From the NCBI GenBank assembly GCA_958009085.1, contig OY253679.1, forward strand, positions 310,001 to 374,000: 64,000 nucleotides of DNA, read 5' to 3'. The notes beneath the pieces are model-generated. The model was not told the DNA's origin, searched no databases, and saw only the letters and a program-made list of their open reading frames with translations. Below, piece after piece: positions 176-48,219 of the stretch (within the stretch, counting starts at the first letter, position 1; each line of letters opens with the position of its first letter). The DNA is from Protoeuglena noctilucae (Eukaryota). Made by a program: the position numbers and the translations under genes.

Positions 176-3100
176 GAATCCCCCACTCGCATCGACGGTC
201 TCCCCGACGACGTGGTCCAGGTCGCAGCGGCCAAGTTTCACAGCGCCGCCCTCACACACGACGGCCGTGTGTTCACCTGGGGTGTCGGGCGCAGTGGGCG
301 CCTGGGTCACCCAGAGGCAGACGTACACAGCGGCTATCGCGCAGTGATCCTCCCGCGGGAGGTCGCGGCGCTCCGGCGCGTGCGGGTGGCCCAGGTGGCG
401 GTGGGCAAGAACCACTCTGTGTGCTGCACGCACGACGGTGAGCTCTACGCATGGGGATCCAACGCCGAGGGGCAGCTGGGCCTCCCGGGCGAGGTGCAGG
501 CCGCCGAGCCGCGCCGCGTGCCGCTCGCCGCCCCGCGCGACCCCGCAGCCTCCGCCCGCGCCCGCGCACGCGTGGTCGCCGTTGCTGCCGCCTCGGCCCA
601 CACCGCCGCTGTCACCTCTTCCGGTGCGCTGCTCACCTGCGGGGCTAACGACGCCCGGCAGCTCGGGTACCTGACCCCGGACGCCCCCGGCTCCCCGTCC
701 CTGCGTGCCGTGGAGGCTCTGCGTGACAGGCGCGTGATTGGCACAGCCGCCGCACGCCTCCACACCCTGGCGCTCACCGCGGACGGCGAGGTGCTGTCCT
801 TCGGCCACGGCAGCCCCGCGCCGCACCGCGTGCCGCTCCCGCGCCTCCACCCCACCGCCGCCCGCCCACCCCGGGCCGTGCTGGTCACTGCCGGCCGCGC
901 CCACTCCTCTGCGCTGCTGGCCGGGGGCCTCGTCGCCATGTGGCGGTCTTGGGAACCCTCCGCGCCCGCCCAGCTCGTCGGGGGTCCTTTGGCGGGCCGC
1001 ACCGTCACCCACATTGCGGCAGGGAGGACACGCACGGCGGCTGTCACGTCTGACGGTCGCGTATTTGTTTGGGAGGGGCCCTGCGAGACTGCCGGCCTAG
1101 CAGCGGAGGTAGACGATGCGGTGACACCTGGGGCGAAGGCAGGGGCGGGGGCGGGAGCAGGGTTGACCACCCCACCTGCACGGGCTGGGGCGGGAGCGGG
1201 GGGTGACGCGTCAGCGCAGAACAGTGGGGCTCGTGGGGCGCGGGGCGGGCGCGGCGGCACCAGCGGTCGTGGCGCGGGGGTGGGCGTGGAGGGTGTGGCG
1301 GTGGAGGGGGTGGATGGGGGTGCCCGGGTGGTGCGGGTGGCGGTGGGGGAGAAACACTCGCTGCTCATCCAGAGCTGGGCGGCCCCCGTGGCCTCGGGCC
1401 CCGGCGCGGCGCTTTTGGAGAGGTCCTCGGCGGGGTTCGAACTCCCGCGGGATGCGAGAGAGGCGAGCGGGGCGGAGGGCGAGGGGCGGGGGCGCCGACG
1501 GGATAGCGATGGGTCGTGGGCGAGCCTGGAGGCTGGGGTGTTTGAGGGGTTTAACGCCGTGGAGAGTGAAAAGGCGGAGGGAGAGGGCGAGGGGGGGTGG
1601 TACCCGGGGCACAGCTGGGATGGGCCACTGAGTGGGGTGGGGCGTGGGGGGCACGGCGGGGGTGCGCCGGTGTGGTGGCGGCGGTGGGGTGCGAGGGGCG
1701 CGGGGTGGGGGGACGTGCCAGCAGTGGGTGAGTGATCCAAGTAGCGTGGGGTGGAGAGTTGTTGGCTATCCTAGCTGCGCGTGCACATGCGCACCCCACC
1801 ATACCACCCCACCTCTACGCAATAAAACATGGACGCGCCTCCACCCTACCCCATGCCCCCCCCCCCCCCCCCCCCCCCCAGGTCCCCCACCGCTGCGTCT
1901 CTTGGCTGAGCTCGCGTCCGCACGCGCCCTGTCTCATTCGGACCCCCGAGCGGCCCTGTCCACGCTTCACTACGCCGATGCCGCCAACGCCGCTAGGCTC
2001 AAAGCACATTGCCAGGCGGTGGTGCTCCTGAATATGGACGCGGTAGTCGAGGAGGCGGCCAGTGAGGTGCGGCGGTGCTGGCCCTGGGTTTTGGTGGAGC
2101 TGGAATCGATTGCGGCGGGGTTTGATCGCGCGACCTCTGCGAATGGCGCGGCGGGGGCTGAGGAGGAGGGAATGGGGGTGGCGGACGTGGCGGGGTGGGG
2201 GAGGGTGGAGTTGGGGGTCGCGGTGGGGCGAGGGGTGCGGGGTGTGGGGGGTGCGGGGAGTGCGGGGGGTACCGGGCGTGGGGTTGGGGTGAAAGGGCGG
2301 GGGTGGAGTGCAGAGGAGGGGTCCTCGCCGCCAGGGGGAGGGAGTCCGGGGCCGGTGGCGCGCGGGGGGTGGAGAGGGGCGGAGGGAGAGGGGCGGGGTG
2401 CGGGTGGGGAGCGGGAGTGGGCGGGGGATGTGCCTGAGGGGGCGGAGAGGCATGTGCGGGCACTGCGGCGCAAGATGGAGCAGATTGAAGACCTGGAGGT
2501 GAGGGGAGGGGTTGTTGGAGAATGTTGGGGTGAGGGTGGGGTGCGAAGTGTGGCTGGAAAGGTGAGCAGTTGGTGAGGAGTGGTTAATTGCACCCAGCCA
2601 TTAGCAACCATTACTTGTAGAATTGTGGTGTCGCAGACGACCTCTATCGACGTTCGCGCAGGCGATGGCGCGTCAGGGCCGTGAGCTGGACCGACAGCAA
2701 GTGGCCAAAGTGGCACAGAAAGGAGCGGTGGCAGACGCCCTCTCATCGATCATGGCTGGGGCCGACCCGGAAGAGGCGATGGAGGCGAGTGGATGGCGAC
2801 ATTAGCAATGCTTTTTTGTCATTGTTTTATGTTTCGCATAGAAGAGAATGGAAATCTCGATGCTTGACTCGCCAGGTCTCACCCATGCGACCCCCCCACC
2901 ACCACCGTCGCTCGTGCCCCGCAGGCCCTTTCGCGCGCCATGGACGCCGCGCGCCTTGGTCCGCAAGAGGTCGCGGGTTCGAGTCCCTCCGCCGCGCCTC
3001 TGCGCCGGGGCATGCTCAGCACGGCCCTAGGCGGGGACAAGGCCCCGACAGGCGTGGGTGCCACCAAGCGCGTCCCTGCCGATTTCAAATCCACAGAAGC

Positions 3101-5821: not shown

Positions 5822-8800
5822 TCACCCCTGCTTCTGCACGACCCCGTCTAGCTGCCCCTTCCTGGCCCTCACTTTCATCACGTTCTTGGTCATGACCTCG
5901 TCTAGCCGACGTGCCTCGTCCTGGGCCGCGCGGGACGAGTGCATCGCCAGGCCAGACAGGCGGAAGAGGTGCACCTTGCCGCTGGGGGGAGAGGAGGGGA
6001 AAGGGAAGGGTATTTAGAGCAAAGCGTTTCATGGCGAACACAATGGGACTTCGCCGGTGCAGGGCGAGGCGGGGTGAGGAAGAGTTTCGGGTGTGATTAT
6101 TACGTGACCACGATGCTCGCAGCACGCGCATGCACCCATCCAACCCCACCCAACCCCACTCGACCCACCTGGCCGCCCCGCACGCCAGCACGGTGCTCGC
6201 TTCCGAAAAGGCCACGCACGTCATGGCGATGCCTGGGAACGGCTGCACCTTCTGCTCTGGGCCCAGGACGCTGTACTCCAAGTCCCAGAGTTCCACGGCG
6301 CCGTCCTGGGAAAGAGAGAGAAGCGCAGGGGTCACGTCACGCGGCAGCATTGCTAGTCATGGGTCGGTCGGGCCATATCCACCGCCCTCACACGCACCAC
6401 ACAACCACATCAACCATTGTCAGCCGCCCCTCACACGCACTGCTTATTCCAAACAAAGCCACTCATCCATGCCACCCGCCGCTTCCCTGCATGCCCGCAC
6501 GCCACACCCAGGCCCTCACCTGTGACACGCTGGCGAGCACGGTGGCGTTGTAGGGGCACCACGCCACGTCGTTGACGGCGTGGCCGACCGAATCCGCGGA
6601 CGAATGCAGGGTCAAAAGCGGCTCCTGTTTGCCCTCCCTCCACAGCTTGAGCGTCCAGTCGGCCGACGCCGACACGAAGAGGCCCGGCTGGAAAGGCGAG
6701 TACTGCACCTTGTACACCGGGCCCATGTGGCCCCAGTACGACTCGAGGTATTGGTCCGAGTAACTCGTGGAGCACTTGTGGATGGTGCCCTCCTCGGTCG
6801 AGGTGACGTAGATGGACTCGTCACGGGCGTTGAAGTCGAAACACATCCCGCTCGCGTTGCGGCTGATGAACGCCTCCGGCTCCTTCCCGGTCGACTGCTG
6901 CCTGCAGAAATGACGCGAGGATGCGGAATGTCAGGGAAACACAGAGCCCATGGGGCGGGATGCACGGGAGGAGTGGCACGAGTTAGGACCGTTCCTGCGC
7001 TTGTGGTGTCGCCGGGGGACTCACTTGCTGGGGTCGACCTGCTTTTTGAGCGTCATGAGCAGCGTGCGCTCGAGCCCCTTTGCCGTGCTCCAGCGGATGA
7101 CCCGGGAGTCGGTCGATATGGAAACCAGCGACTCCCCGCGGTCCCCAAAGTCCACCCACTTGACCTTCCAGACCGGGTCTGCGGCGAGGAGGGAAGGAAA
7201 TGTCGAATGCAAACGTCGCGGGACTGCAGCGTGGCGCGCCGAGGGCGGTCGGGCTCAGCGCAGGTCGCTGCCCGCAGCTGGCTGGAAGTCATATCCAGGC
7301 GGGCCGGGCATCCGGGAAGCGCGAGAATCGAATGATAGGTCGACTAACGGTGCTGAATCCGTCGCCGCGTGAGCGCCGGCGGCGCTCTGCAGCCCGCAAG
7401 CCCGAGGCACGCACCCGTGTGCTGCCCCGTGTCGTGGTCCGCCTGCATCACGGGCGTGGCGTCCTTGTCTCGGACGTCGTATATGCTGATGCTGCCGTCG
7501 TAGAGGCCCACGGCCAGGATGCTCGGGTAGCGGCCGGACCAGTCGATCGACGTCACGCCCGAATGCGTCCGCACCCAGAACTGCGGGCAGAGGAGCCGGG
7601 GCGCAGCTATAGTGATCCATATAATGCTATTTGCGATGCTAATGGCTATGAATTCGCATATCTCATCCCCGTGCATTCACCCCGCGTCCAGCTGCACACA
7701 GCCGGAGTATTGCGATGCCTGCCAGCTGCAATAAGCAGCTAGCCCTCCCAGCGTCCTCACCAGCGGCCACTCGGGGCTCTTGAGCGACCAGAAGGCCACG
7801 AACCCCTGGGACGCGCTCTCGTCCTGGTCGTGCGGCCGTGCCGTGTACTTCCCGGCCTTGAAGGTGAACTCAAACGTGCCATAGCCCACTGCCAGCAGGT
7901 CGGGACGGGCCTTGTTCCACGAAACGCAGGAGACGTTCTGCGGAAGAAGCGGCTGACGACGTTAACAAACCGCGACTCCTCGCTCACGTCATGCAGGCGA
8001 AGACGCGCGATGCGGTGGCGGAAGCGCGACAGGGTTCGGTCACTTGATGTGCCATGCACATCCGCGTTCGGCTCAGCTGACACCTAACAGCCCCACTCGC
8101 CTTCCCCTCGAACAGCGAGCACGAGTAGTCCCACAGATGGTCCATAGACACGGGGCTGTGGCGGGTACCGGGTGCGTCGGACATGTCCGTGACCGTGCGT
8201 GCCAGGGAGCCCTGGGAAAGGTTGGAGGCGCGGCTCATGCGGCGCGACCGGCTTCCCTCGTCGATGGCGGATGACCCGGGCGCGGCGGGCGCCAGGGGCT
8301 GCACGTCGCCGTACACCGTGCCCGTGGTCAGGGCGAGGTTGCGGCCGGCCCCACGCAGCGCCGACTGCCGGACGCCGCGGAAGAGCAGCAGGCGGTCGGC
8401 GTAGGGGCCCTGCGCCACGGCCGACTCCACCAGCTGCAGAGCCTCAGCGATGCGGGGGAGGGTCGCAAGGCTTCGCTCGGGGGTCTCGATCTGCGACGGC
8501 GCAGGTAGGGTATTGAAGTCAGAGCGAGACATGAAGTGTGTCATGAGCAGTTTGCGATGAAGTATTGTGATCGATACTCGCATCATGGTGTGCGTGAGTA
8601 CGCTCTTGCATGGCGTCCCAGCTGCTGCGTCCGCTTCGCATGTGCATGTGCCAGCGCGGCCCTCGCCTCAAGCTTGAAGAGCTTGGCGAGCTGCGACCCC
8701 TTCTTCTGCAGGCCGGCGGCCTTGGACCCGAGCAGGCTCATGGTGGATCCGAACACGGACCCGAGCCCTGCCGTGCTCCCCGCCATGCTGCCCATCTGAC

Positions 8801-10929: not shown

Positions 10930-13900
10930 TCAAGACATGATCATGACGTTCCCCCGCGCCGTCTCGAACTGCTCCGCGCGCGCCATGCTGCCGGACCCCG
11001 CGTGGGCCCCGTGCTGCACCATCTTGGCCTCCAGCAGCCGACGGAGACCGCGGATCACGTCCTCCTGAAAGCACAAACACCCGTGGGAAGGCTGAGACGG
11101 ATGCAGCGATTGATCGCACAGCTCAGGCCAGTGGCTGGCACCTTGTATGCGCAGCGGTGCTCAGCTCTACCATCATGGTACCATCATCAGCACGTCAACT
11201 CCCCATATCACTGTCTCCCCTCCCTCTCCTCACCTGCCCCGCCATCGACTCCCCCTGCGCGTCCACGTTCCTGGCCCGCACCTCCAGCTGCGCCTTCTCG
11301 TCCCGGGCACGCTCCAGGCGCTCCGTGAACATGTCCCTCAGCGCCTGCGTTATGGATGGAAGACACTACGTTATCAAGGTAACAAGTAACACTGACAGTA
11401 CCACACGAACATTTGGTGAACATGTCCTTGCATGCCTGGTCGTGAGAGCACTGACACTAACCCTAAGAGAGCTACCCCACCCCACCCCACCCCATCCCTC
11501 ACCTGCACCTCCACCACCCCATCCCCACCCCAGCCCACCCCACCCCACACTCCCACCCCACTCGCCTGCAGCTCCACGGACGACGTCGACGTCCGCGCGT
11601 CCACCAGCCGCACCATCGCGTCCACCCCGGGCTCCAGCGCCCCCGCCGCGTGGTACTGCTGCTCGAACTTGGCCGCCTCCGCCAGCATCCCTGCCACCTC
11701 GGACTCTAGCCCCACGAAGCCGCCCGAGGCCTCGGCCAGGGCGCGGCGGACGTCGCTCTGGGACTGGTCCAGGCGGGCCTGCGGGGGTGGATGTGGAGCG
11801 GGGATGAGAATTGGTGTATGTGGAGTGGGTGGGAGAGGTGTACAGCCATCTTCCCTGCACCCCACACACCTCCCTCCCTCACCTGCAGGTCCAGCAGCGC
11901 CTGCTTGGCCTCCTTCCGCGCCTGGATCCTCGGCACCAGCTCCGCCTCCCTTTCCTTCACCCGCGACGTGATGGCCGCGACCGTCTTCGATATCTCTTCC
12001 AGCATCGCGCCCTTGCCCTCGTCCACCGCCGCCTTCTGCTCGGAAATCTTCTCGAGCCCCGCCTGCGTGTCGGTGTAGCCCTCGACGCCGTGCTCGGCCT
12101 CGGTCCGGCGCACCTCGGCGCGCATCTCTTCCGTCAACGCGCGCAGGGACTCCACCGTGCGCTGGAGGGGGTGGGGTGGGGTGGGAGAGGGCGTGAGTGG
12201 TGGTGGTGGTGTTGGTGGTGGGTGCGTCTATGAATTCATGACGCTAAGAGTGAGCACTGCGAGTTGGGTTGATGCCAGGGTATGCACCCAAGCAAGCGAG
12301 CACATGTCACACAATGACACGGATCACATTTACACATTATCACTCACCTTGAGCACCATGTCTTCAGCCTCGACGTTCTCCACCAGGCGCTTGGCACCCC
12401 GGTACTGCCCCAGCAGCTCCCGCACTTGCACCGCCTTCTGCTCCAGGGCGGCGGGGGACACCTCGGCGCGGGACGGGCTCGACCGAGACTCGTCCTCCGC
12501 GCCGAAGCGACTCTCCACCTCACGCCTGCGGGCGACGCGCGGGACGGGGAGGTCGATAAGGTAGGCCTGAGTTGGGAAGGGCATGGGCTGGGGAAAGGGC
12601 TTGTGTTATGCACCCTAGCCCATCTCATCAGTCCCGCTGCTGCCCCATGCTCCCTGGAAACATCACAGCTGAGTGCCCTCCGTCAACACTCCTCTCATCT
12701 CCCACAACCACACACCGCCTCTCACCTCAGCGCCCTCCGCCGGTTTTCGATCCTCTCCAGCTTCTGCCTCTTCTCCTCGAGCTTCTTGGCCCCCACCCGG
12801 GCCATCTGCGCGTGCGCCCGCAGCGCCGCGAAGGCCGGCTGGGCGTCGATCTCCCCCTGCCGCTTCGAGATGCGCTGCTTCAGGTCCGCCACCGCCGCGT
12901 CCAGGTCGCGCCGCGTCGACACCAGCTGCTCCAGGTCGCCCTCGTCCTTTACGGGGAGTGACAGCGCCTGCGGGCGTGTCGTGTCGTGGGGGTGCAAAAG
13001 CTGTTTGCTATCATTGCGATGAGTTAAGCTAATGCAGTGATGCTACTGACACCCGCGAGTCGGGTGGGAGCCGGGTCGCCTGCTCACAAGCACATGTCGT
13101 ATCTCTGCTCTCCCATCCTCAGCCCCGATAGCTCCTCGCCTGCCCCACCACCCCCACCCTCTCGCAAACGCCCCTCATCCACCCCTCACCTGCCTGAGCG
13201 CGTCCAGCCTCTTCGCCCGCTCGTTCATCGTCTCCAATGCGCGGCCCTGCACTTGCGACCTCAGCTCCTCCACACGCGCGCGCTGCGAGTCCAAAAGGCC
13301 CTGCGCCGACCCCGCCTCCGTCGCCGCCTGCGACAGAGAGCAGAAATGGAACACCAGTTTGAGTGTCTTGTTACTGTGTAAGCCCGTCAAACCTACATGG
13401 CGCCACTTGTCCCTGAACCCCCAGTCAGTGGCAGTCCCACTGCTGGCACTTCACTTCTTTTTCTTGCATAAACTAACTCTAAGCATAGTAACTAACCTCA
13501 TCCACAATCCAACGCGCCCCGCCTCGGCTCACCTTGAGGGCCAGCAGCTGCGCCCGGGCCCCCTCCACCCTGGACCTCAGAGCCTCGGTCTTCTCTCTCT
13601 CGGCCGACACCTGGCCCCGCAGCTTGACCGCCGCTTCCCGGGCCTCCCGCACCGACTGCGCCGCTCGGAGCATCGCCCCGACGTCCTCCCGGGGCACCTG
13701 GCCCTCCACACGCATGCGCACCTGCAGGCGCCATGGCGTGCGCGTGTGACGGGAGGGGTGCAGCTGTCGCGAGGACGCTGGCGCCAAGGCAGGCGCGTCA
13801 GAGCGACAACGCAAGGTCATGAATTTGACGCAGCGAATGCGCAAGCCAAGACATGCTGGCCATCAGCCAGCGACGAGCAAGAGCACTTGCAGCTGTCGAG

Positions 13901-14859
13901 ATCGCCCCTGCTCCTGGCCGCCCAGCTTGCTTCTCCTAACCACACGTCACGCTCCCGCCCCCGCCGGTTCCACTCGCCTTGAGGATGCGCTCCTGCAGCC
14001 TGGTTTTGTCAAGCTGCATCCGCTGCATTTCCTCCGCGAGCGCCTCGGGGTCCCGCCGCCCGGCCTCAACCTCCTTCAGCCGACGATCCAGCGAAATGAA
14101 CGCACCCTGCGCTGCGCGCGTGTCGTTCGTGAGGTGCTGCACCTGAGGATCCAAACGCAGCTCGTCGGGGAAGGGGATGTCGACCAAGAACCAGCCGACG
14201 TGCGCGCGCGCGGGGAGGAGATCCGCGTTCTGCGTAAGCCATCCAAGGATTTCGAGGAGTACCGGGGCGCGGCAGGACACCATGCCGGCCAGGACGGCCT
14301 CCGACGTGTGCGCCTGCGGACCCGGCTGGTACTTGACCATGCGGAGGAAGAACTCCACGCGCTCCGCAGCGGCCTCGGCACCATCCTGCAAAGAAATCAA
14401 CAAGCGCGGTGTCAGTGCGGGGAATCGGCAGAGCTGGAGGCCCGCGGGGAGCCAACATGGCCGAGGCGGGGGCATGCCACGCGTGCCTTAGCGACGACGA
14501 CCCGCGGGAGCTTGGGCTGAACGGCGATACAAGCGTCCATGAGTAGCTGCAAGAGCTCCGGTCCGGACATCTGGCCCAGCGTGCCCACGGAGAGCGTCTT
14601 CATGTTGAAGGGCGGGCCCTGCGCGCGAGAGCCAGGAGCGGGTGTGAGCGGCCGGGTTCGCCGCATTGCGTATGAAAGAATGCCGTCCCGGAGATGCGCA
14701 GGGCATGCGCAGCGGGCAGGGCGCAGGGGGACGTCCGACAGGTTCGGTGCTCAGGGCGCCATCCCGCGGCCCGCGGGTCCCTGGACGCGCCGGTCGGAGG
14801 CTTCTGCAGAGCGAAGGACTGACCTGGAGATTGCGCTGAATGAAAGAGATGTCCGACAT
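10930..14859 (-). CDS. IFT81: Intraflagellar transport protein 81, multi-exon
   Basis: N-terminal CH-like region MSDISFIQRNLQ|GPPFNM..ELLQLL, ERVEFFLRMVKY..LEILGWL..RAHVGWFLVDIPFP, a long coiled coil, GVEGYTDTQAGLEKISEQKAAVDEGKGAMLEEISKTV. TGA at 10930-10932. Confidence 0.92.
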
Positions 14860-15279: not shown

Positions 15280-18200
15280 TCACCTGCGCTGCCCCTGCCC
15301 CGCTGGCCCCTCGTCCTCTCTTCCTGAACGATTGTGCCGCACCGCCACGCGTGCTTTGGCCCGGTACGCGACAAACGCCACCAGGCACGCCCCCGCGCCC
15401 CACGCCAGCACCTGACGGTAGCCATCCAGGCTTACGGGCAGCTCCCGTGCCCCGCTCGACACCCCCAGGCTGGCGCGGTCACCCCCGCCCCGTCGAAGGT
15501 ACGTACGCAGCGGCAGCACCCCGCCCACGTCCCGCGGCTCGCCCCCGCCACCTGCCCCGACCGGCAGGTGGCTCCCCGCCCCCACCCCGCACACCCTGCA
15601 TGACTTGGGGCATTGCAGGAACATGTAAGCTGCGTTCGTCAGGCATTGGTCGGACGCAGCCCACCCCTCGCACTGCTCCTGCGGGGAGGTGGAGAGCGCT
15701 ACGTGGTGTTTCAGAGGAGCACGACAAAGCAGCACAGAACCCACAATGCAATACTACTCTCCCCGAGATGAAAGGTCTGTGTTCACCCAGCCGTGCAGTC
15801 TACGCATGCACATGAAATAAACGTACATGCACGTGATACCTAGCACCCTCGCCTGGTAGTCCTCGCATGGAATGGCTCCCTGAGGTACTTTGCCCAGATC
15901 CCCCAACGCCTCCAATTCCCGTCGAAAGGCCCTCTCCCTGTCGTCTGCCGCCAAGCACAGGGCATCCAGCTGAGCTGACGGGGGGCAGTGGAGTCGGTGC
16001 CATTCGCACAGCGCTGTGTCTGCCGTGATGAGGGGCTCCTGCGGCCGAGGTCGCACGAGGCGTGGCGCAGTGGTTTGATTGGGCTGGCGATATCAAGTCG
16101 ATATCAAGTAACAGGAGTGTCCTGGCTCCCCTGCCATGCCAGCGTCACGACGCAGCCTGGCATAACTCCAACTCCACGCCCCGTCACCAGGGTCACATTC
16201 ACATTCAAATCACACACGCTCAGCACAGCGCACCGTCGCCTCACCAGCGTCATCAGCTCCGTCAGCCGCTGCCTCCCAAGCGACCTTAGCGTGCTGGGAT
16301 GCGGGGGCGTCGGGAACAGACCCGACACGGGCGCTGCGTGGATGGAGAGCAACAAACAAATGATATCTACACGTATGGCAGAAGCAAGAAGATGACATGG
16401 CTACAGGTATGATGGCGGTAAAGGTAAGCGTCATGCCTTTTTACAAACAGATACGTCAGTTATCTAAGTATCACTGCAACCCAAAGCCCCGCTTACCGCT
16501 GTCCATCCCGAACGGCTGCGTCCAGGGCTGGTCGGGCCACGGCGGGCACACGATGGGATCAAACCGTTTGAACCACTCCTTGTTCCACCAGATCCCAGAC
16601 CCGGCAGGGCCCGCCTCCCAGGTGTAATAGTAGTGCAGCACGTGGGGCGCGACGTTGACGGACGAAACGCCAGGGATGGCCTGCTCGGTCACGGCGGCCC
16701 GGTGGCGCAGGCCGTGCTTAGCTGCCGCGAACGACCAGCCGTACATCTCGCTGATCCAGGACCGGCCACCCCCGCGCGTTGTGGTGTACCTGTCGCCCGT
16801 CGTCCGCCATGCGTCCGGGTCCAGGCGCACTTTCTCCGAATATCGCATGTAGTCATCCACGATCGTCGCCAAGTCCTCACGGTAGATCATGAAGAAGGCG
16901 CCGACCTGCAGGTTGTTGTTAGGGTGGGCCGTGATGAGATGGCGATAGCGAAAAGCTTTGTATGCGTGCTGTGATGTGGCCTGGGTGGGCCGTCATGAGA
17001 TAGCGATAGCAAAGGGTATTGTATATGTGCTGCGATTGTACGTGCTGTGCTGTGGCCAGGGTAGGGGTCCAAGCCTCACCTGGTCGCCGCGGCGTCCGTC
17101 GACCCCGCCCACCCGGTCCTGCATCCGGGGCAGCTGCAGGGGCGAGTGAATGCTGTGTTACAATCACACGTTGGGCCAGTTACAGTCTCTGTCCTCCTAG
17201 CATGTACGTGCGTGCATACGCCATGCCATGCGGATTGGGAACCGCAACTGCAACGGTGGTCATGCCGCAGGCCTCCCTCGTTCGTCAAGGCACCCATCCA
17301 TTCAGTCAACTGCTTATGCGCATCCAGCGCATCTCTGGCTCTGTCGTCACCTCTGGCACGATCGCGTCCGCCAGTTCATTTGCCGAGCCCTTCATGTACC
17401 TGCGTATGACAGCAATCGAAGGCACAGTGGTGGTCACAGAACGCAACAGTCACAGCAATTGAGGGCGCAGTGGTTGTCACGGAATGCAGCATGCAATGGT
17501 CGTCTGGGTACAGGGTGGGAGAGTGGAGCACTCCAGCGCGAGATGGAGAGACCGACACACGGCAGCGGCAGCAGTGTTACAGTCTCTGCCATCCTCACCC
17601 GTAGAACGCCCCAACGGGCCTCCCCGGAGTCACGCCGAGTTTCACGGGGTCCAAGGGCGCCCGTATGACCATGTCAGGATCGAAAATAAGCACCACATCC
17701 GCATCGGGCTTGGCCTCATCCAGCCATCGCCGGAGCGCGTAGGGGCGGTTGTAGGGGGGGTACGAGTCCCTGGGTTAGCGCAAATGCAAGGGGGGCTTTG
17801 TGGGTCAGAGCACGTGCACAAGGGGTTGACTGGGTCCAAGCAAGTGCAAGGACGTGCAAGGGGGCTCGCGTGTCGCAGCACGTGCAAACAAGGATATAAA
17901 TCACAAAGCAATTGCATAGTCCGGCACCGCGTGGTGAGCATCCTCATGGGGAAAGCGCAAGGCCCGCCGCCAGATGCACAAGGGGTGGCATCGAGACGAG
18001 GTGTGCACGCACCCAATTGCGGTGTTATCGGTGGCGTCATCCGTCACGAACGTATCGACGATGTCGAACACCACGCTGCGGGTCTGCCGCACGCGCGCGA
18101 GGTCCTCGGGCTTGCAGGAGAGAAGGCGCGTGAGCTTGCCCGGCTGACCCGAGGCACGGAACGAGTGGGCCAGCACGATGCTCTGCCAGTCGAAGTAAGA

Positions 18201-34175: not shown

Positions 34176-34188
34176 ATTTTATATATAG
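34176..34188 (-). promoter_or_regulatory. Possible TATA box upstream of the ARM-repeat gene
   Basis: CTATATATAAAAT on the minus strand about 215 nt upstream of the ATG at 33961, in otherwise GC-rich DNA. Confidence 0.35.
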
Positions 34189-34933: not shown

Positions 34934-36400
34934 TCAGTTCAGGGCCGCGCCCTTGTCGTCCGCCACCTCCGCCTCGTAAAGCTTCGCAGCCGCCTCCCCG
35001 TACGTCTCCCCGGGGGCAGGCCCCGGCGGGACGTCCTGCACGCACGTTGGCGCCCGTCGCATGACTCTCTGTGGCAGCATTGTCCTGGCATACACACCTT
35101 GCTTGTCGCTCCAACTGCGTAGCTGCTCGTCGCGTCGCCCCCCCCGCTCGCCTTGGTGAGGATGAACACGGACCCCCGCGGGCCCCGGGAGATGCGCAGG
35201 TTGTCGTCCAGGTACGTGGTGATAAGCCACGTCTGGGCCTGGTCGCCCTGGATGGGCAGGGACGCCTCCTTCGGCAGCTGCTTGAAAAGCTCCTGTGCGA
35301 GCGACAGCCCCTGCTGCGCCACGCCCTTCAGCGGCTCCAGGACGGGCTGAATCGGCTGCAGGTCCACGCGCTGGCCCATGATGGAGAGCTCCCCGGGGAT
35401 GTCCACGTTGTCGAGCAGCTGCAGGGTCGCGATTGAGCCCTGGTTAAACTTGACCTGGAGGCGCTTGGGCGACCGGACCTCGAGGTTGGCCGACGTCGAC
35501 ACGGACGTCTTGGACAGAGGCACCGAGATGTCGACCTGCGGGGCGCGACGGCGGCGGGGGGGTCGCGGAAAGTATCTGCCAAAGCGTCTGCACAGGCTTG
35601 CAAACTGGCCAAACTTGCCTTGTTCTGGACCTTCATGCTCCGCGTGTCGATGGTCTGCGAGATGTCGCCGATCTCCACGCCCGGGAGCCGCGACAGCGCG
35701 AGCACCGCGATGAGCTCGCTCCCCGACGTGTAGGCCAGCTTCCACGTCCCGCTCAGCTTATCGGCGTCCTCCGTGGGCGAGGTCGTCGGGTTGCATGCCT
35801 CCAGCTGTGTGATCAGCTCGTCAATCTCCGCGCGCACCTGCGGGGCCGGAAGGTGGGTCGTCGCGGCGGGGCGGGGCCGTGCGCATGGGAACAGCCAGCT
35901 GACGACGGCGCCGGGGGCGCGCTCCTGCGATGCGGGCGCGCGTGCGAGCCCCTGCGTCCAAGTCACGCAGCTCGGCCGCGGGACCGGCCAGGGCGCGCGC
36001 CGCCTCGACGCGGGAGGGGCCCCACAGTTCAAGAGGCGCCTGCTGCAGGTCGTTGCGGAACGCAGCCCCGGCGAAGGACTGGACCCCGCAGCACGCGCCC
36101 CCGCGACTTGCGCGTGGGACCGTCCTCGCAGCAGTCGCGCGGCGATCGCGGGCGCGAGGAGGGCCTGGCAAGGACCAACGGGAGCCCCACCTCGCTGCGG
36201 GCCGTGAGGCCGCGATCTGTGCCGTACAACGAGTCGAGCAGGGCCGCCTTGACATCCTCCGCGCTCATTTGGTACCCGCTGGCGAACTCGGCCGTCGCCC
36301 GCACCCGCCAGGCCTGGCGACGGGCACCCGCCGCGCGGGTGGGTGCACGGGCCGTCGCCACCGACGACGACGGCCCGGCCTTGGCCAGGGAGCGTAGCAT
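34934..36400 (-). CDS. Plastid lipid-associated protein / fibrillin (PAP_fibrillin), 4 exons
   Basis: Transit peptide, KAALLDSLYGTDRGLTARSE|VRAEIDELITQLEACNPT..LSGTWKLAYT, EVRSPKRLQVKF, WLITTYLDDNLRISRG. Confidence 0.93.
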
Positions 36401-36951: not shown

Positions 36952-38499
<1,548 letters not shown>

Positions 38500-38748
38500 G
38501 GCCTCCTTGGGTCGCTTGCGCCTCCTTGCTGCGACGTGCACTGAATCCACACTCACTTCCCTGCTCGCGGGGCCTTGCTTGAAAACGCACCTTTGTTGAA
38601 TGTTTCGCTCGGTTGGCCGCGCGCTCAGCTGCAACGGATGCAGGGACATGAGACCTGCAGCACGCAGGATGCGTCTTTGCGAGCCACATCGAAAGCGTGG
38701 CCCGTCATTTGGTCTCCCTTCGTCCTCGTCTCTAAACGCGTGTCCGCG

Positions 38749-40634
38749 ATGCATACGGCGACTCCGTCCCACCACCGGCCGGGCCGGGCAGGAGGGGGAT
38801 TATCGGCGGCCCACTTATGGTACATGGTGCGGATCGGGGCCGCCATCGCTGAGCGTTCAGTTGTTGAATCCATCAACATACGCGTTAGGAGGCGCGAACG
38901 TGTGCGCTGCGATGCCTTCTCGCGGCCCCACCTGCACCCATCGCCCCCACCGCCCGCAGGCCATCCTCGCGCTGCTCGTGCCGTTTTTCGTCATCTCCCG
39001 GTACGGGCAACGGAGCGAGGAAGCCCAGGAGCTGTGCAATTGCGAGTGCGACGCGCCGTCGCGGCCCAGGGACGACGGATGCCTGCGCGTATTGCAAAGC
39101 ATGACGAGCGCCCGCTCCGACCACGGAAGCCCGGCCTACGTGGCGCCGGAGGTCCCTCACGCCATCGCCACGCTCCGCGCCACGCGCCAGGTGAGTGCCG
39201 GGACGCATCGCACATGGCAGCAAAGCAAAGCACGACACACTTCCTACGGTCGCGCGAGGCTTCTCTCGCAGGAACTGGAGTACACCGCGAGCATCATCGA
39301 CGTCAAGCCATCCACCATCTCGCCCGACATGTGGGGGGCCTTCGCCAAAGGCGAGCGGTGCCCAGCTGCGCATGCGTGTAGCTCCTATCGACAACGATCA
39401 TCTATCCCATAGCTCTGACTCGACATATCGCAGTGGACCTCCCGGCCCTGACGTTCCTGGGCACGTACATCGGCGACATCTTTGACCTCGACACGTTTGA
39501 CGACCACGTCGACCCCAGCCTCTACTACTACTCCTTCGCCGTGCACCGGTGGGTAGTGTGAAGCGAGGGTGTCAATCCACACTTTTTGACAATTCCAGCA
39601 GTGCCGCGCCTATTTCAGCCACCGACCCACTATCCACACCCCCGCCAGCGCCGCACCTCTCACCCCCACTCTCCACCCACACCCCCCCGCAGTGCCGCGC
39701 GCAGCTTCCCCCCCGCCGTCGACGACGTCGATTCCTGGGAAGCCGCGTATGGGTTCGATTCCTACGACCTCCTCGTCCCCCGCCTCCCGTTGGACCCGAG
39801 GGGCGCCGACTTCATCGATGGCAACTTCAACGCCACGCCCTTCGTCAACGAGGCGCCCCCGGGGACTCCCTACAACGTCATGTCAGGCACGTTACCCGCA
39901 AGCAATTATCAATCTCATCCCCTGCAAGGTTGACACCCCGCAGTGTCGTCGCATGCCTGCATGTCACACCTCGCCCATGTCACGTCATCCTCACATCACC
40001 CATAGACCTGAGGCTGACCACATGCCTCACTTGCACCCCCCGCAGTCTCATCCTATGCCTACGATCTCCACGGGCCCCCCACCGAGGTCGACGGTGACCG
40101 TGCGATTGTGGTGGAGTTCTACACCTGCCGGCCCGTGGCCGCGGGGGAGGAGCTCTTCATCAGCTACGGCCAGGGAGTGAGTGCGCGTGATTGCAAGCGA
40201 CTACTAGCCGTGGTCACATCTATTGATAAATGTGCTGTCCATCAGCTGTTCATGGCGAGGGAGTGAGTGCGCGTGCTTGCCTTTGACGCCAGCAATGGTC
40301 ACACACACATGCTGTGCCCCATAACAGCTCAATGCCTCATGCCCCATGCTCATCATCGCCCTCTCATGCAGTATTCCCGTGACTATCCGGTCAACTCGGA
40401 CCTGGGGGAGTGCGCCCTCGACAAGGAGCTGGTGAGCACTGCTATTGCACCGCTTTCTAACCCAACGCCGGACTGGCTTACTTACGCCCACCCACCCACC
40501 CACCCACACACACAATGCGGGGTGGCAATGGGTGTGAGTGAGGGCAGGGGAACCCCTGCCCTTGCTCCCCGCCCTCGCAGTACATCTCTGCCAAGGGCGG
40601 CCCGGCTTGCAGGGTTCTGGCGAGCGCGAGCTGA
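38749..40634 (+). CDS. SET-domain protein with N-terminal signal anchor, 8 exons
   Basis: Spliced: MHTAT..HLWYM|AILALLVPFFVISRY..VKPSTISPDMWGAFAK|VDLPALTFLGTYIG..TPFVNEAP..VEFYTCRPVAAGEELFISYGQG|YSRDY. GxFA, FVNE and GEELFISY are SET motifs. Confidence 0.75.
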
Positions 40635-40824
40635 CAGCTGCCTGTCAGAATCAGTGGAGCTCTAAAATGCGATCGGGAATTGTTGTTGGGAATGTCAGGA
40701 GGAGCTAGTTGGCACAGATGAGACAGCAGAATGGTGCTTTCAATGATCATGGGTGGCCAAACACAGTCACCATTGACATGTATTGCATGACAACGCGTGT
40801 AGCCCACCACCCTCTCACCCCCCC

Positions 40825-43800
40825 TCACACCCGCGTCGGCAGCACCACCCGGCTCTCCAGCCCCTCTCCCCCCACAAACTCCACATGCACCGCCTCCCTC
40901 CGCCCCCGCCCCCGCCTCCCCGCATCTCTTGCCACCAACTCCCATGCCGACCCCATCTCCCTCTCGCTCCGGTCGCCCCACGGCCCCAGCGACGCGAAAG
41001 CGGACCCCAGGGACCCCGCCGCGCCCACCAGCGCCCGCAACCCCACCCCCGCCGCCGCCCGCCCCTGCCGCCCCTTTCGCCCCCCATCCAGCCCCGCCCC
41101 CGCCCCCTCCCTCGCCTCCGCCACCTCCTCGTGCAGCTCCCCCGCGAAATTGGCCCGCTCGCTCGCGAACAGCGCCAGTCTCAATCGGTGCCCGGCTGAA
41201 AAGGCGTATGACACCGGCATGAGGCTGAAGGACAGGCAGACGACCTCCCCGGGGATCGAAGGCTCGACGTCCGATTTCGAAAAGGTGTGGAAGACGGTGC
41301 CGGGGACCCACCCGCCCGCCCGGGGGTCGTTCTTAGGTGGGGCGGGGTGGGAGCGGCGGTGGGCGGCTCGCAAGGCACCCTCGCCCACATAGGTGGGGGC
41401 GTGGCTGCGGGGGGTTTCGATTTAAATATGTGAGAATGGGTGGATAAGGAATCGATAAGCTGTGCGCGCTTCTCCCTCAGTTGCCATCCACCTCATTTGC
41501 AAACGCCCCATCCACATCGTATTTACTCAGCCACCACATCTCACCCCACCCCACTCCCTCCCCCCCCCCATCACCCCTCACCCCGGCGCCTCGTCCAAAA
41601 GCACCGCAAACACCGCCACGTCTCTCTTGTCGCATTTGAGGTGGACATCCACTTGCACAGACCCCATAACGCGGAGGGTGGATGCGAGGGGTGGGGTGCA
41701 GAAGGACGCAAAGCCGGGGGAGGTGAAGACTGTGCCGTAGTGCATCTGTGGTTGGGGGTGATAAGGGGGGGTGGTGGTAGTGAGGGTGGTGGTGCTGATG
41801 AGGGTGGAGGTGGTAGTGAGGGGGAGGTGAAGACGCGGCCGTAGTGCATCTGGGGTTGGGGAGAGTGGTGGTGGTAGTGAGGGTGGTGGTGGGTGTTGTT
41901 TGATGGAGTGACTAGGGGTGACGAATCGCAGTGACAACTCAATGATCTAACAGACCTTCAGCAGTACTCTCACCTTGACCAATGCGGGTGTTCTTACACA
42001 ATTACAGATTTCCATTGCTTACCTTGACAAACGAGAGTGCCGTGCGATAAAGCCAGTGCCAAGTACTTAATATAAATATACACATGCCATTGCTCAAAGT
42101 CTGACCTTGACGAATGGGAGTGCCACCAGTCCGATGCGGTTGCGCACCGGCAGCTGAGGGACGCGGCTGGTGTCGTGGGAGACAGAGAAGGGGGCAGTCG
42201 GGGGTGTGGGTGACAATGAGTGGCACGACTTGGAATGTAAAGACTGTGGGGGAGGGGAGGGTGTAGTGACATGGGGCGTGGCAGCGACGAGAGGTGTGCT
42301 GATAAGGGCACACTGCCTTGTCTGCTGCCTGCGACCCCCACTGCACCCACTCCCACGCCCCTCCCCTCTCGCCCCTCACCTCCCCCTTCCCCATCCACAC
42401 CACCTCCTTCCCCCGCCCCTGCAGCCCTCCCTCCGCATCCACCTCCCCCCACCCGCACGCCCCCGCTGGCCCCATCTCGTACACCATCACGCGCCGCCCC
42501 GGACGGCTCAGGTCCAGCGGGTACCCAATCGAATCCGCCGAGCTGCCCTTTTTCAACGGCTCGCCGCCGCGGCGCCGGGACCAGGCCTGGGGGGCAGAGG
42601 CGGGGGCGAGCGTTGAGCGAGGCAGTCGGTTGATAGCGGCGGTTGCAACAGTCATTTCGCCAACACCACACCACATAACAGCTGCAGCAGCTTTCGAGCC
42701 GTCAGGCGTTGTCAACCAAACCCCGTCAACGCCCCTCATCTCCCACCTGCACCCCTCAGCAACCCCACCCATCACCCACCCTCACCACCCTCTCACCTCC
42801 CACCCCCACCCCACCCTCCTCTTAGGCACCGGCGGCGCCCCCTCCGTCCCCGACTCAGGCCTCGCCTCCATCCACCGCACCAGACACAGTGCGGCATCCA
42901 GGGGCAGTGCCCTCGTGCTGTCGGGAACGTGCTTTGCCAGGCACCGCCTCACGAACCGCATCAGGGGGGGGATCTGGGGGAAGGTGTTCCATGCGGGGTG
43001 CAGGCCGTGCGACTGGGGAGGGGGGGAACAGAAGAGCACGTTTGCTATTGAATAATGATGGAGATGTGGATGGTTCAGTACTACTAGACGCGGGCGCTTG
43101 CTGCGACTTGCAACCTATTAACAATCAATCCATTTTCACTCACATCCATATTCAACCACCCTCTCTCAACCACTCGCCTGGTGTTGCGCCATTAACCCCC
43201 CGTGCCCCCACGGCCCCACGACCAGCTCGCTCAGGTCCCCTTTGCCCACACGGCGATAGATGGCCTCGGACGCACCCACCGTGATGTCCATCCAACCCGT
43301 CTCCACATACACGTCCAAGTCCTGAGAGTGATGTATAGTAAATGATTATAGTGCTTGACTGATACGAAAGAGAACTGCACATTTATATGGCCAGCCTGTC
43401 CGCGAACAGGCACAGTCACCCATCACCATTACCATCATTCATCACTGCAATCATCATAACCATAGTATCTCACCATCTCCCCCAGCCTGTCTGCAAACAG
43501 GCACGCGCTGCCCGTCCAGAAGGGGCGGTTGTCTGAGGATGGGGCGGGGTCGTCCGCGCACCTCACATGGTCCAAATCGTCGCGGAAGGTCCAATTGTGA
43601 CGAGAGGCAGTGGCCTCCACCACCTGATGGGGAAGGAGAGGGGGAGGTGGCATTTGCGATTGAGTACGGAGAACAAGCAGGTCAATAGATGTCCATGGAT
43701 GTTGTCAATCATGACTTACCCCACGGCAACGGTTGTCCGTGAAAGAAAGGGGTTCAGTCATGATCCTCTATCCTCCCCTTCACCTCAACTCACCCTTTTC

Positions 43801-45996
43801 AACGCCACCCGTTTGAATCCCCACATGCTCATCTGCTTCCTATCTATAAGTCTCCAACGTGCTGATCTTCCCTATCTACAAAACTCACCCTCTTCGACCC
43901 CACCCGTTTGAACTCCCTCTTGGTCCCCCGATCCATGGAGCGGTAGGGGCGGAAGGCGCGGTCGTCCGTCACGGTGTCTCTGCTCCCGTCGACCGATGGG
44001 GGGTCGCCTGAGACCAGGCCGGACGCGACCAGGGGGGAGGGGACCTGAGTGAGATGAAGAGGTGGGGTGGCGTTAACTTTGCGTAGAGAGGGTGGGGTGG
44101 GGGTGGGGTGGGGGTGGGGGGGTGTAGGTGAGGGGTGGAGGTGACCAGGGGGGAGGGGACCTGAGTGAGATGAAGAGGTGGGGTGGCGTTAACTTTGTGT
44201 AGAGAGGGTGGGGTGGGGTGAGGGTGGGGGTGGGGGGGTGTAGGTGAGGGGTGGAGGTGACCAGGGGGGAGGGGACCTGAGGAGGAGAGATGGGGAAAGG
44301 TGGAATGAGTATATAGTATGGAATAGTATGGATTAGGGGTAGGCTGAAGGGTAATTACAATAGGCATGTGCTTGACGCACTCTCTCTCTCTCTCTCTCTA
44401 CCCACCACTCTCTCACACATCACCCCCTCTCACCTCGATCATGACGGGCGTGTGCTTGAGGCACTCTCTCTCTCTACCCAACCCCATTACCACCCTCATC
44501 TTATCCTCATCCACCCCAACACCCTCACTTAAAACCTACCTCGATCATGACGGGCGTGTGCTTGACGCACAGCGCCGTGCACCCGAGCCTGCGCGAGTCC
44601 ATGACGGTGGTGAACTGGGACCAGCGGGAGGGGAAGGAGCGGGGGGGGACGCCGCCGGGGAAGGACACGTCCGAGTACAGGTCCCAGAAGGGGTAACTGC
44701 GATCAATTAGATGGAAGTATGTGTAGTCCAGTTAGTGAAACCTGGGAACCTCACCACAGCGCCACCTCCACCACCACCCCACCACCTCCCCCCTCACTCA
44801 CCACAGCGCCACCCCCACCACCCCCTCACCACCTCCCCTCACTCACCGCAGCGCCACCCCCACCACCCCCGGGTGCCCGAATGCCGCGGTGTGCAGGGCA
44901 GCCGTGGCGTCGTAGCTCATCCCGAACAGCACCGCACGCCCATCACTCCATGGCTGCGCGAGGGCCCACATCAGGACCTGGGGAGGGAGAGATGGCGAGG
45001 CAGGTGGAGTGGGGTCAGGGCAGTGTGAGAGTCAACATAAGGACATGAGAGAGCACGACACCCATCCCCACCCAAACCCACTCGTCCCCACCACCCACAC
45101 CCCCACCAACCACACACCCGCACCCACACCCACCCGCACACCATACTGACTCATCCCCATCACCCACACCCACACCACCCCCACCCACTCACACCTCCAG
45201 GCTGTCGCACCGCTCGCTGGGGTGCCACGGGTGCCGCCAAACGCCCCCGGACGCCCCCGTGCCGCGGACGTCCATGCTGACGACGGCCATGCCGGCTGCG
45301 ATGGCCAGCTGCTTTGCCTCCAAATTGACCACATCGATGGGCTTGTCACCGACGAACGGGATCCAACGCAGGTACTTGCGGGCCGTCATCGAGCGCCAGT
45401 AGCGCGTCTGCAGGTGGAGGAATGGAATATAATCGCGATGCGCGGGTGTGCGGGGCGCGCGGAGCGAAGCGCGCGCGCAGCGGGTCAACGTGCCTGGTGG
45501 AAGAGGACCGGGAGGCCGCGGGACCGGTCGACGCGCTCGCTGGACGGCAGGAAAACGTCGACGGCGATGTTCACGCCATCACGCATGCGCACGTGGAACG
45601 TCTGCGCGAGGGAGGAGGCGCGGGGATGGCCGCATTATTGCACAGCTGGCACCAACACCGGGGCAGCGCGAGCGCGGTCCCGGAAGGACCCGCGAGGAGG
45701 TGAAGCGCAACTATGAATCCAATGCGATCCATCGCAACGCCGGCAAAGCAGACGGGCACGACTGCACGGCGCCACGAAAGGTCCACCCTCCCCGGCAGTC
45801 CCCGGCGAGGCGCGGGGCCACACATTCGCATCGTGACGCGGCGGACGGGTGCGAGAGCATCGAACCTGCCGTGTAGATTCCAAAGATTGCCCAAGCTCGC
45901 CTGGAACTCGCTCTCATTCCATATCTTAATGCGCTCTGCTAAGCTGGGCGTCCCCGCCACTTCGGACGGGTCCCAATGCCCGTCGAGGCCCTTCAT
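40825..45996 (-). CDS. CocE/NonD family serine hydrolase (peptidase S15 fold, PepX_C domain), multi-exon
   Basis: VRMRDGVNIAVDVFLP..LPVLFHQ|TRYWR, VVSMDVRGTGASGG, WALAQPWSDGRAVLFGMSYD (nucleophile), GWMD (acid), LVVGPWGH (His), FTSP..LRVMGSVQVDVHL, PVSYAFSAGHRLRLAL. Confidence 0.88.
44027..44282. repeat. 116-nt-period tandem repeat spanning a 3' splice site of the CocE gene
   Basis: gaccaggggggaggggacctgag starts at 44027, 44143 and 44259. Confidence 0.9.
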
Positions 45997-46366
45997 CGCT
46001 GCTCAAGGTGCGTACATTCACCAGGTGCCGAGCTAGCGCGCCACACCCCGCCCACGCTGCCTGGCGTGCGCGGACAGGGCTGATCACGCGTCCCCGGTTC
46101 TTCCGGTTCTCGGCATACAATGTCTCGAGTTCAGCATGTATCAGCGCATGCGGGCTCGCCGTCGGTTTCAGGAGCCGCTTTCGTGAAACACACACACCGG
46201 CGCGTTTCGTCGATTGCCAGACACATCGTGGCCCCGATGCGTTTGCAGCAGCCAGATTTGGCGCTATACGCTCACATTGACCGCGGCGACACGGCCGCAC
46301 AGGCGCAGTCAGTCCTCCTCGGGCGCGCACGGATCGATCGGACTCGCGCTGCAGAGCCCGCCCGCC

Positions 46367-48219
46367 ATGGCGATGGCCACGGCCTCTCGGCCACTCTCGG
46401 CATCCTTGTGTCCTGATCGAAGATGTCGTAGCCTCCACGCCGCGTTGCGGGGGCCAAGTCGTCCCGAATCGCGCCCGCGCTGCCGCATTGCCGATCCGTT
46501 GACACGCAGCCCCGCATCGCCGGCCGCGGCCCCGCGCCCCGAGGTCTCGACTGCGCAATCCGATTCGGCGGCGAATGAAGACAACTTCGAGGCGTTCGTG
46601 CAGGACGTGCAGCGCAGCATCATCGCGGAGGCGGAGGCGCTCGAGGGGAAGTTTGGGAAGGCGAGGGCTGCGCGCTCAGCGCATCTGCAGCCATGCAACT
46701 TCATGAATTGGTGCAGTTTGACATGGAATTGCCATCGACCGTGCTCTGCGCAGGGAGCGACGTTCCGGCACGACAGATGGGACCGTGACACGCGTGACGC
46801 AGGATTCGGCATCACTTCGGTTTTGGAAGACGGGGCGGTGCTCGAGAAGGGCGCCTGTAACGTGACGGTCGTCAGGGGGGTCCTCTCTGCCCAGGTAATC
46901 ATGTAAGGGCGTATTGGCTGTGGTCGCCAACTGTGCCATCACCAGCCAAGGCCCGTACCGCAGTGCCACTCCATCGCCGCACACCACACACACAATCACA
47001 CAACACCCCATCACTCTTCGTTGCCCCCGCAGCGTGCCCAGGCCATGAGCTCCCGCGGCCGCAGCAGCATCGACCCTGCCGGTGGTCAGCCGTACAGCGC
47101 GGCTGCCATGAGCCTCGTCTTCCACGCCAGGAGTCCGCTGGTCCCCACGCTGAGGGCCGACGTGCGTGTGTTTGAGGTGGCGGGGAACAGGTGAGGGTGG
47201 GGGCGGGGGTGGCAGTGAGGGTGGCAGTAGGGGTGGTGTTGAGGATGGTAGTGGGGGTGGCAGTGGGGGTGAGGGTGAGGGTGGCAGTGGGGGTAGCAGT
47301 GAGAGTGAGGGTGACGGTGCCATGCCTCGTTGCCTCTGCCCCCGCACAGGTGGTTCGGTGGCGGCTGCGACCTGACCCCCTCGTACGTGTATGAGGACGA
47401 CTGTCGCGAGTTCCACCGGTTCTGGAAGGAGCTCTGCGATCGGCACCACCCGGACCTGTACCCAGAGTACAAGGAGTGGTGCGACCGGTAAGTGGGAGGG
47501 GGAGTGGAAGGGAGAACAATGAGAGGGTAGTGCGATTGGTGAGCGGTGATTGCGGTAAATCGCTTGACATCTGTGACTCCGTGCAACCACTCCCAGTTAC
47601 TTCTTCATCCCCCACCAACACCCCACAATCCCCCCCATCCTCAGTTACTTCTTCATCCCCGCCCGCGGCGAGCACCGCGGCGTGGGGGGCATCTTTTTCG
47701 ACGACCTGGACGCCACCGACCCGCGCGGGTTCGATCCTCAGCAGTTCACGAAAGAGGTCGCGCGCGGCGTCGTGGCGTCCTGGGCCCCCATCGTGGAGCG
47801 GCGGCAGCGGGAGGGGTACACCGACGATCAGCGGCAGTGGCAGCTGCTGCGGAGGGGGCGTTACCTGGAGTTCAATCTACTGTACGACCGAGGGGTCAAG
47901 GTGACGCCCACCTTGACATGGAGAGGGGTAGCTGGGGTATTATGGTATGCAAGGGGCGCAGCATGTGCACATCTTCACACATCCGCCACCAAGCTATCCA
48001 CCATCATCTGACAAACACGCTTGCAGGAGAATAATGAGAATACTAATGTCATCATGCACTCGTTATTTATCGCAGTTCGGCCTGGACGGTGGCCGCGTGG
48101 AGTCGATCATGGTGTCAGCCCCGCCGCTCATCGCCTGGAGATACCGAGCGGAGCCGGAGCCGGGGACGCCCGAGCACGACTGCCTGGAGGTGCTGCGGAA
48201 ACCGAGACAGTGGGTCTGA
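46367..48219 (+). CDS. CPOX: Oxygen-dependent coproporphyrinogen III oxidase, plastid-targeted, 6 exons
   Basis: [102 protein letters not shown]. Confidence 0.96.

Follow-up and report, generated by a model that had tools for sequence, protein, structure and literature searches.

GC-AG introns make up about 25–35% of introns in a GC-rich 64-kb window of Protoeuglena noctilucae

Introns that begin with GC instead of GT are usually a rarity, with a share of 1.3% over all 61 species examined by Iwata & Gotoh (2011; PMC3033335). In a stretch of 64,000 nucleotides from the Protoeuglena noctilucae assembly GCA_958009085.1 (contig OY253679.1, positions 310,001 to 374,000; hereafter the window, in whose own numbering all positions are given), such GC-AG introns account for about 25–35% of introns. 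An earlier note on this DNA had listed 22 GC donors and claimed a very high GC-AG fraction; the claim holds in that the share lies far above the usual ~1%, while the figure of ~19% that came with it proved too low. Each of the 22 listed coordinates is the first intron base of a motif AG/GC[GA][AC]G (a slash marks the exon–intron boundary), with 11 sites on either strand and a minus-strand site denoted by the highest base of its intron. The evidence laid out below confirms that the listed coordinates are accurate and that the GC donors are real. We read them as ordinary U2-type spliceosomal introns in which GC-biased drift at donor position +2 is tolerated wherever the remaining donor positions are strong, an explanation to which we assign a probability of roughly two-thirds.

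Splicing at GC donors is seen in RNA. Contigs, not reads, from four runs (X1–X4) of one marine metatranscriptome study, which share 31–38% of the words of positions 24000–33999, were aligned to positions 26150–46149, a stretch that includes 12 of the 22 listed sites. All junction figures rest on the 15 best supported of 37 joints, and canonical placements were sought by shifting each joint across the range in which its position is ambiguous. Five of these 15 joints are GC..AG and ten are GT..AG; none of the five allows a GT..AG placement, and the acceptor is AG in all 15 introns, each of which also displays a C-rich tract and a (G)CAG acceptor. The GC..AG joints were found in runs X1, X3 and X4, in contigs that match the window letter for letter. 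Under a true GC-AG rate of 2%, five or more among 15 would arise with P = 8e-6, and the exact 95% interval for the observed share, which applies to the window only, spans 12–62%. Thus, a tally of donor dinucleotides in RNA bears out the claim, and four of the five GC..AG joints coincide with listed sites (30988, 32774, 35151 and 35618), the fifth, at 30597, being absent from the list. The spliced products are open over 814, 322 and 214 amino acids. One RNA contig falls 262 letters short of the presumed exons, a gap equal to the sum of two GT-AG introns (114 + 148 nt) predicted by the gene parse described below; with these two counted, the RNA tally becomes 5 GC to 12 GT.

The remaining eight listed sites within positions 26150–46149 find neither support nor contradiction among the 15 best of the 37 joints; RNA cover is low at 26.1–28.1 kb, and its depth is about zero at 38.8–40.8 kb. 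At the listed site 28471, the ends of two RNA contigs lie at 28467, the expected place of a 28470/28643 joint in its leftmost placement, and the one joint listed there leads elsewhere; these contig ends are compatible with a donor at 28471 but no proof of it. Run X2, labelled RNA, holds none of the 15 joints and covers introns with unspliced contigs (for example at 30997–31801, 35821–36446 and 38252–38614), and therefore carries DNA or pre-mRNA of the same organism.

Further junctions could be judged from protein homology, by scoring all in-frame G?..AG pairs around each junction against homologues or profiles. As protein collections give only unspliced open reading frame calls for this contig, homologues of the helicase, the coproporphyrinogen oxidase (CPOX) and the S15 peptidase were fetched for this scoring; the calls in a large collection for the 397,918-base contig are of bacterial style (24846–25529 and 20–1732; P0001 and P0003). 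In the S15 peptidase gene, a hidden Markov model (HMM) of five bacterial homologues, with which a GT control junction came out as expected, gives 48.7 bits to the GC donor at 45493 and 37.1 bits to the best GT donor; at 43177, all candidates score 10–13 bits in the same model. In the CPOX gene, excision of the 93-nt intron at 46661 yields 52.1 bits with a profile of 71 bacterial HemF proteins, against 40.9 bits unspliced and 47.2 bits for the best GT alternative; an equal-length GG..AG placement, shifted by 4 nt and without consensus, reaches 52.9 bits and is thus on par with GC..AG. The alignment of human CPOX (PDB 2aex) begins directly after the putative acceptor of this intron, and a PDB search with the end of exon 1 returned only chance flavodoxin matches. 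The intron is in frame and stop-free, and its retention would lengthen the protein by 31 residues without disrupting it. Farther along the same gene, the acceptor of exon 5 occurs with the first exon bases (CAG/TTACTTCTTCATCCCC) twice, ~50 nt apart, at 47590–47665; a second, alternative acceptor or a minor duplication within the intron may lie behind this.

The DHX57-like helicase gene provides both donor types. With 13 homologues, five junctions are clearly fixed, all of them GT (53393, 56321, 58107, 58922 and 59185), and a GC call made by the parse at 53414 was overturned because the homologues favour GT at 53393. The first intron of the gene, at 53018, came out as GC-AG; its lead over the next candidate is 14–15 points for three of the supporting homologues and 2 points for P0131, and its unspliced frame holds a stop. 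Elsewhere, the RCC1 homologues were uninformative for the listed site 2785 because of their internal repeats, and a Pfam search with single exons at E ≤ 10, covering 14486, 24738 and 43177, gave no match for the short exons. Altogether, independent checks support six of the 22 listed sites, four by RNA and two by homology (45493 and 46661).

How many of the GC donors could be owed to chance? We wrote our own gene parser, which combines a 3-periodic Markov coding score with donor and acceptor weight matrices and was trained on the 15 RNA introns together with the genes that RNA supports and the frames that Pfam supports. Base +2 of the donor was left unscored, and GG and GA donors were admitted as decoys. 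Self-training degraded the recovery of the RNA introns to 7 of 15 after four rounds, and the RNA/Pfam-trained model, which recovers 14 of 15, was kept. As it follows the same logic as the earlier note, the parse is a control for chance and not an independent proof. Its log-odds stand at 1462.7 when only GT donors are allowed, and at 1878.1 with GT and GC, 1616.6 with GT and GG, and 1530.8 with GT and GA. When all four donor types are allowed, it places 100 introns, namely 56 GT, 33 GC, 8 GG and 3 GA, and recovers 19 of the 22 listed sites, missing 11565, 39351 and 46661. At a flank score of at least 4.5, the parse contains 20 GC donors, 23 GT donors and no decoys. The heptamer AGGCGAG occurs 34 times in the window, and the decoys AGGGGAG and AGGAGAG occur 18 and 16 times; as donors, the parse uses 19 of the 34 AGGCGAG copies versus 0 of the 34 decoys (Fisher p = 1e-7). 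Within predicted genes, the sense to antisense ratio is 27:4 for AGGCGAG versus 11:14 for the pooled decoys (Fisher p = 0.001).

It is scarcely credible, in the light of these controls, that most of the listed GC donors were over-called and that nearby GT donors are used in their place. Single cases of this kind do present themselves: at 11565, an in-frame GT donor lies 63 nt downstream, at 11502, and the sequence between the two is a GGGGTGG-type repeat like those with which other introns start; the parse call at 53414 had to give way to a GT donor; and the parse used 11 impossible decoy donors. However, the four listed sites that can be checked against the displayed RNA joints (the 15 best of 37) are all correct, both sites that homology could resolve favoured GC, and the parse never picked a decoy whose flanks were strong. 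Over-calling is thus contradicted already at six of the 22 sites.

The share of GC-AG introns can be taken from samples that were not picked for a GC look, which give 5/15 (or 5/17) for the RNA and 1/6 for the helicase. In the parse it is 33/89, or ~25/81 once the GG decoy level is subtracted. The ~19% of the earlier note fell short of this, as its list lacks no fewer than two supported GC introns (30597 and 53018). The individual introns are collected in Table 1.

Table 1. Supported, predicted and candidate GC-AG introns of the window in order of position; the slash in the donor marks the exon–intron boundary.
Positions	Strand	Donor	Listed site	Status and gene	Evidence
2785..2924	+	GAG/GCGAGT	2785	predicted	parse only
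7938..8100	-	AAG/GCGAGT	8100	predicted	parse only
8491..8666	-	GAG/GCGAGG	8666	predicted	parse only
11345..11565	-	CAG/GCGAGT	11565	candidate	parse chose GT at 11502 instead
13722..13977	-	AAG/GCGAGT	13977	predicted; IFT81-like gene	parse only
14386..14486	-	AAG/GCACGC	14486	predicted; IFT81-like gene	parse; Pfam IFT81_CH starts at residue 3 of next exon
15679..15852	-	CAG/GCGAGG	not listed	predicted	parse only
19598..19792	+	GAG/GCGAGT	19598	predicted	parse only
20072..20308	+	GAG/GCGAGC	20072	predicted	parse only
24738..24917	+	GAG/GCGAGT	24738	predicted; RPGRIP1-like gene	parse only
26206..26477	+	CAG/GCGAGG	26206	predicted; acceptor 26474 or 26477	parse only
26559..26688	+	CAG/GCGAGT	26559	predicted; acceptor 26685 or 26688	parse only
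28471..28642	+	CAG/GCGAGC	28471	predicted	parse
30504..30597	-	CAG/GCGAGC	not listed	supported; body a C-rich tandem repeat	RNA joints X1, X3, X4
30748..30988	-	CAG/GCGAGG...CGCAG/A	30988	supported	RNA joints X1, X3, X4; exact CT..GC on + strand
32599..32774	-	GAG/GCGAGT	32774	supported	RNA joints X1, X3, X4; sole canonical placement GC..AG
35036..35151	-	AAG/GCGAGC	35151	supported; PAP-fibrillin gene	RNA joints X1, X3, X4; spliced frame open 322 aa
35536..35618	-	AAG/GCAAGT	35618	supported; PAP-fibrillin gene	RNA joints; relatives L090, L091 read through
39351..39692	+	AAG/GCGAGC	39351	candidate	parse only if donors with flank score <2.5 barred; no RNA cover
39887..40045	+	CAG/GCACGT	39887	predicted	parse only
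43013..43177	-	CAG/GCGAGT	43177	predicted; S15 peptidase gene	parse
45408..45493	-	CAG/GCACGT	45493	supported; S15 peptidase gene	HMM of 5 bacterial homologues; parse
45602..45900	-	CAG/GCGAGC	45900	predicted; S15 peptidase gene	parse only
46661..46753	+	AAG/GCGAGG	46661	supported; intron 1 of CPOX gene, 93 nt	HemF HMM
49843..49987	-	AAG/GCGAGG	not listed	predicted	parse only
53018..53131	+	AAG/GCGAGG	not listed	supported; intron 1 of DHX57-like helicase gene	top junction with 4/8 homologues (P0125, P0147, P0129, P0131)

What allows so many donors to carry a C at +2? The donors read AG/GCGAG[TCG], GCAAGT or GCACGT, a U2-type consensus (AG/GYRAGT-like) without likeness to the U12 box, whose donor consensus is RTATCCTT. 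The flanks AG/G.[GA][AC]G (the dot stands for position +2) are present in 8 of 8 supported GC donors versus 7 of 18 GT donors (p = 0.007), and among the RNA-shown junctions alone, by our own count, in 5 of 5 GC versus 4 of 10 GT donors; in the parse, GC donors have a median flank score of 5.1 and GT donors one of 3.5. Given their strict flanks, the GC donors are compensated, not loose. The 'relaxed 5' splice-site recognition' suggested in the earlier note is too broad, as the GC donors keep strict flanks. In this respect they resemble the GC-AG introns of animals and plants, which are likewise of U2 type and in which, for instance in mammals, the remaining donor positions make up for the GC by fitting the consensus more closely; those introns make up ~1%, and the frequencies differ 20–30-fold.

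In the intron interiors, C/(C+T) is 0.63, so that drift would favour C at +2; as T still leads there, selection for T is weakened, not absent. By the mechanism that we favour, a GC-biased substitution pressure would convert T to C at donor position +2, and the C would persist where −2A, −1G and positions +3 to +5 match the consensus enough for pairing with U1 and U6. GC donors could in this manner build up with an unaltered 5' end of U1, and no intron source of their own would be needed. In PMC3033335, abundant GC-AG introns are tied to high G+C and the U1 5' end of Aureococcus is canonical, and the same explanation by GC content is given in Feldmesser et al. (2014; PMC4028052) and in bioRxiv 10.1101/2024.10.30.620910.

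An altered splicing machinery of the lineage, in which a base or modification of U1 or U6, U1C, Prp8 or another factor makes C at +2 acceptable nearly like T, is an unlikely alternative. In its favour, so high a GC share is striking in a genome dense with introns, and PMC3033335 speaks of 'an enigma' with regard to how abundant GC-AG introns originate, suggesting RNA base modification or proteins of the U1 small nuclear ribonucleoprotein because two Micromonas of similar G+C differ tenfold in their share (22.2% vs 2.7%). However, the GC donors here have stricter flanks than the GT donors, which a fully adapted machinery would not demand, and the share lies below the compositional expectation of 63%. 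In addition to the canonical U1 of Aureococcus, the sequences of U1 in the two Micromonas are argued not to account for their differing GC-AG shares (PMC3033335).

Several points nevertheless weigh against compositional drift with compensating flanks. The RNA support consists of the 15 best of 37 joints, comes from one study, and is made up of contigs instead of reads. The flank comparison is biased to strict GC donors, since the three homology sites were picked for their donor-like look. The observed share (~30%) is well under the 63% that an unconstrained +2 would give, and G+C alone is insufficient, Micromonas RCC299 having 2.7% GC-AG introns at 64% G+C (PMC3033335). The well-fixed helicase junctions number 5 GT to 1 GC, so that the GC share differs between genes. 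Finally, L090 and L091 (1470–1530 in both), two related Joint Genome Institute (JGI) metagenome contigs with 71–72% G+C and ~90% protein identity in the fibrillin exons, lack the RNA-verified GC-AG intron 35536–35618 at the corresponding codon; L091 retains the GT-AG intron next to it, again with the codon position shared (GAG/GTGAGA; L091 ~697–1266).

This last difference, with n = 1, would fit a recent gain, a loss in the relative, or a transcript in which one intron is retained. It is the point in favour of a lineage-specific intron source, an introner-like insertion or other recent gain, as the supplier of the GC donors, which the earlier note had also brought up and which we hold to be very unlikely. 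Loss explains the difference equally well, and the JGI records could be transcripts. An all-versus-all blastn of 68 predicted introns (24 GC and 44 GT) produced 38 pairs, all of them low-complexity matches of 17–86 nt and mostly between GT introns, and no family of GC introns; without a family of intron sequences, an introner origin is unsupported. The median length is similar for GC and GT introns (173 vs 194.5 nt), and so is their G+C. A recent and still active wave of gain without a recognizable mobile element, by which GC-AG introns would on average be younger than GT-AG introns and of which 35536–35618 would be an example, appears rather improbable to us.

Many introns of the window are built of short tandem repeats (for example 30504–30597, 47192–47349 and 11503–11565). 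On the sense strand, these repeat introns are G-rich toward the 5' end (GGGGTGG, GGTGGCAGTGAGGGTGAG) and C-rich toward the 3' end. No 7-mers are commoner in the window than GGGGTGG and its complement CCACCCC, with 143 copies each.

In which kind of organism do these introns reside? The G+C of the window is 61–70% per 4 kb and ~65% overall, a figure for the window and not for the whole genome. Pfam, run on 112 long open frames, finds eukaryotic genes on both strands: RCC1, WD40, IFT81, an HPAT-type glycosyltransferase, EF-hand, an RPGRIP1-type C2 domain, PAP-fibrillin, Rab, S15 peptidase, CPOX, GDT1 and the DHX57-like helicase. This gene set points to a flagellate, plastid-bearing organism. The named proteins nearest the helicase all come from green plants and algae (Pedinophyceae sp. 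YPF-701, Ostreococcus mediterraneus, Spirogloea, Prasinoderma and Chlorokybus), and a haptophyte helicase is farther from it than the proteins of the green lineage. In a FastTree phylogeny of 24 helicases, the window protein is the sister of the pedinophyte (local support 99, 58% identity over 686 columns). Judged by its proteins, then, the host is a green alga, and probably a core chlorophyte; as the tree rests on one gene, only the placement among green algae is claimed. Protein searches with the C2 exon and the RCC1 frame matched the contig's own unspliced open reading frame calls and relatives at no more than 53% identity, and an IFT81 exon compared with longer proteins gave no match; the helicase exon, searched in the ESM Atlas, yielded nothing on taxonomy. 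Rfam detects no RNA family in the 64-kb window, small nuclear RNAs included. A run of exactly 200 N at 63727–63926 marks a scaffold gap.

Abundant GC-AG introns have been described before in algae of high G+C. According to PMC3033335, they make up 39.6% in Aureococcus (69.5% G+C), 22.2% in Micromonas pusilla (65.9% G+C), 7.7% in a Chlorella sp. that ranks second in G+C among the 61 species, and 2.7% in Micromonas RCC299 (64.1% G+C). In Emiliania huxleyi, at 65% G+C, 56–65% of donors are GC, as validated by reverse transcription PCR, expressed sequence tags and RNA-seq (PMC4028052), and more recent figures are 14–17% for Aureococcus and ~14% for Pelagomonas calceolata, both of high G+C (bioRxiv 10.1101/2024.10.30.620910). 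The window goes with Aureococcus, M. pusilla, E. huxleyi and Pelagomonas in its G+C of at least ~64%, its transcript-backed share of at least 14% and its AG acceptor. Abundant GC-AG splicing here is thus a further instance of this described trait of GC-rich algae.

None of the known cases is a full match. M. pusilla is likewise a marine green alga, with about equal G+C, a GC-AG share of similar order and AG acceptors. It has about one intron per gene, and many of these introns are introner elements. The window, in contrast, is far denser, with ~100 predicted introns in 64 kb and 5–8 in single genes, lacks repeated intron families, and has a helicase that groups with the pedinophyte and not with the Ostreococcus clade. 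E. huxleyi shares the 65% G+C, the intron richness, the repeat-filled introns, an acceptor that hardly ever departs from AG, and gene models led astray by a preference for GT; it is a haptophyte, however, and GC is its majority donor (~60%, near the compositional expectation), whereas GT leads here (~65–75%). The pelagophytes Aureococcus anophagefferens and P. calceolata likewise combine high G+C with an unusual GC-AG share ascribed to base composition, but are stramenopiles and intron-poor, with 0.19–0.92 introns per gene (bioRxiv 10.1101/2024.10.30.620910). We found no literature report of abundant GC-AG introns in a pedinophyte, another core chlorophyte or another intron-dense green alga, in a search that left subscription journals and the supplements of genome papers outside.

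For the annotation of this genome, the consequences are considerable. A gene predictor that prefers GT would misplace roughly every third or fourth intron and would thereby break most multi-exon models, as is documented for E. huxleyi, whose JGI models have 82% GT donors against 61–65% GC in transcript-based counts (PMC4028052), a precedent that bears out the warning of the earlier note about ordinary predictors. Annotating such GC-rich algae requires RNA evidence together with GC donors enabled. The many pairs of GT and GC donors within single genes provide material on how far the flanks compensate for a C at +2. With the window, an intron-dense green alga joins the short list of organisms with abundant GC-AG introns, so far a haptophyte, pelagophytes and M. 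pusilla, and the added lineage strengthens the case for a repeated rise of the trait with high G+C.

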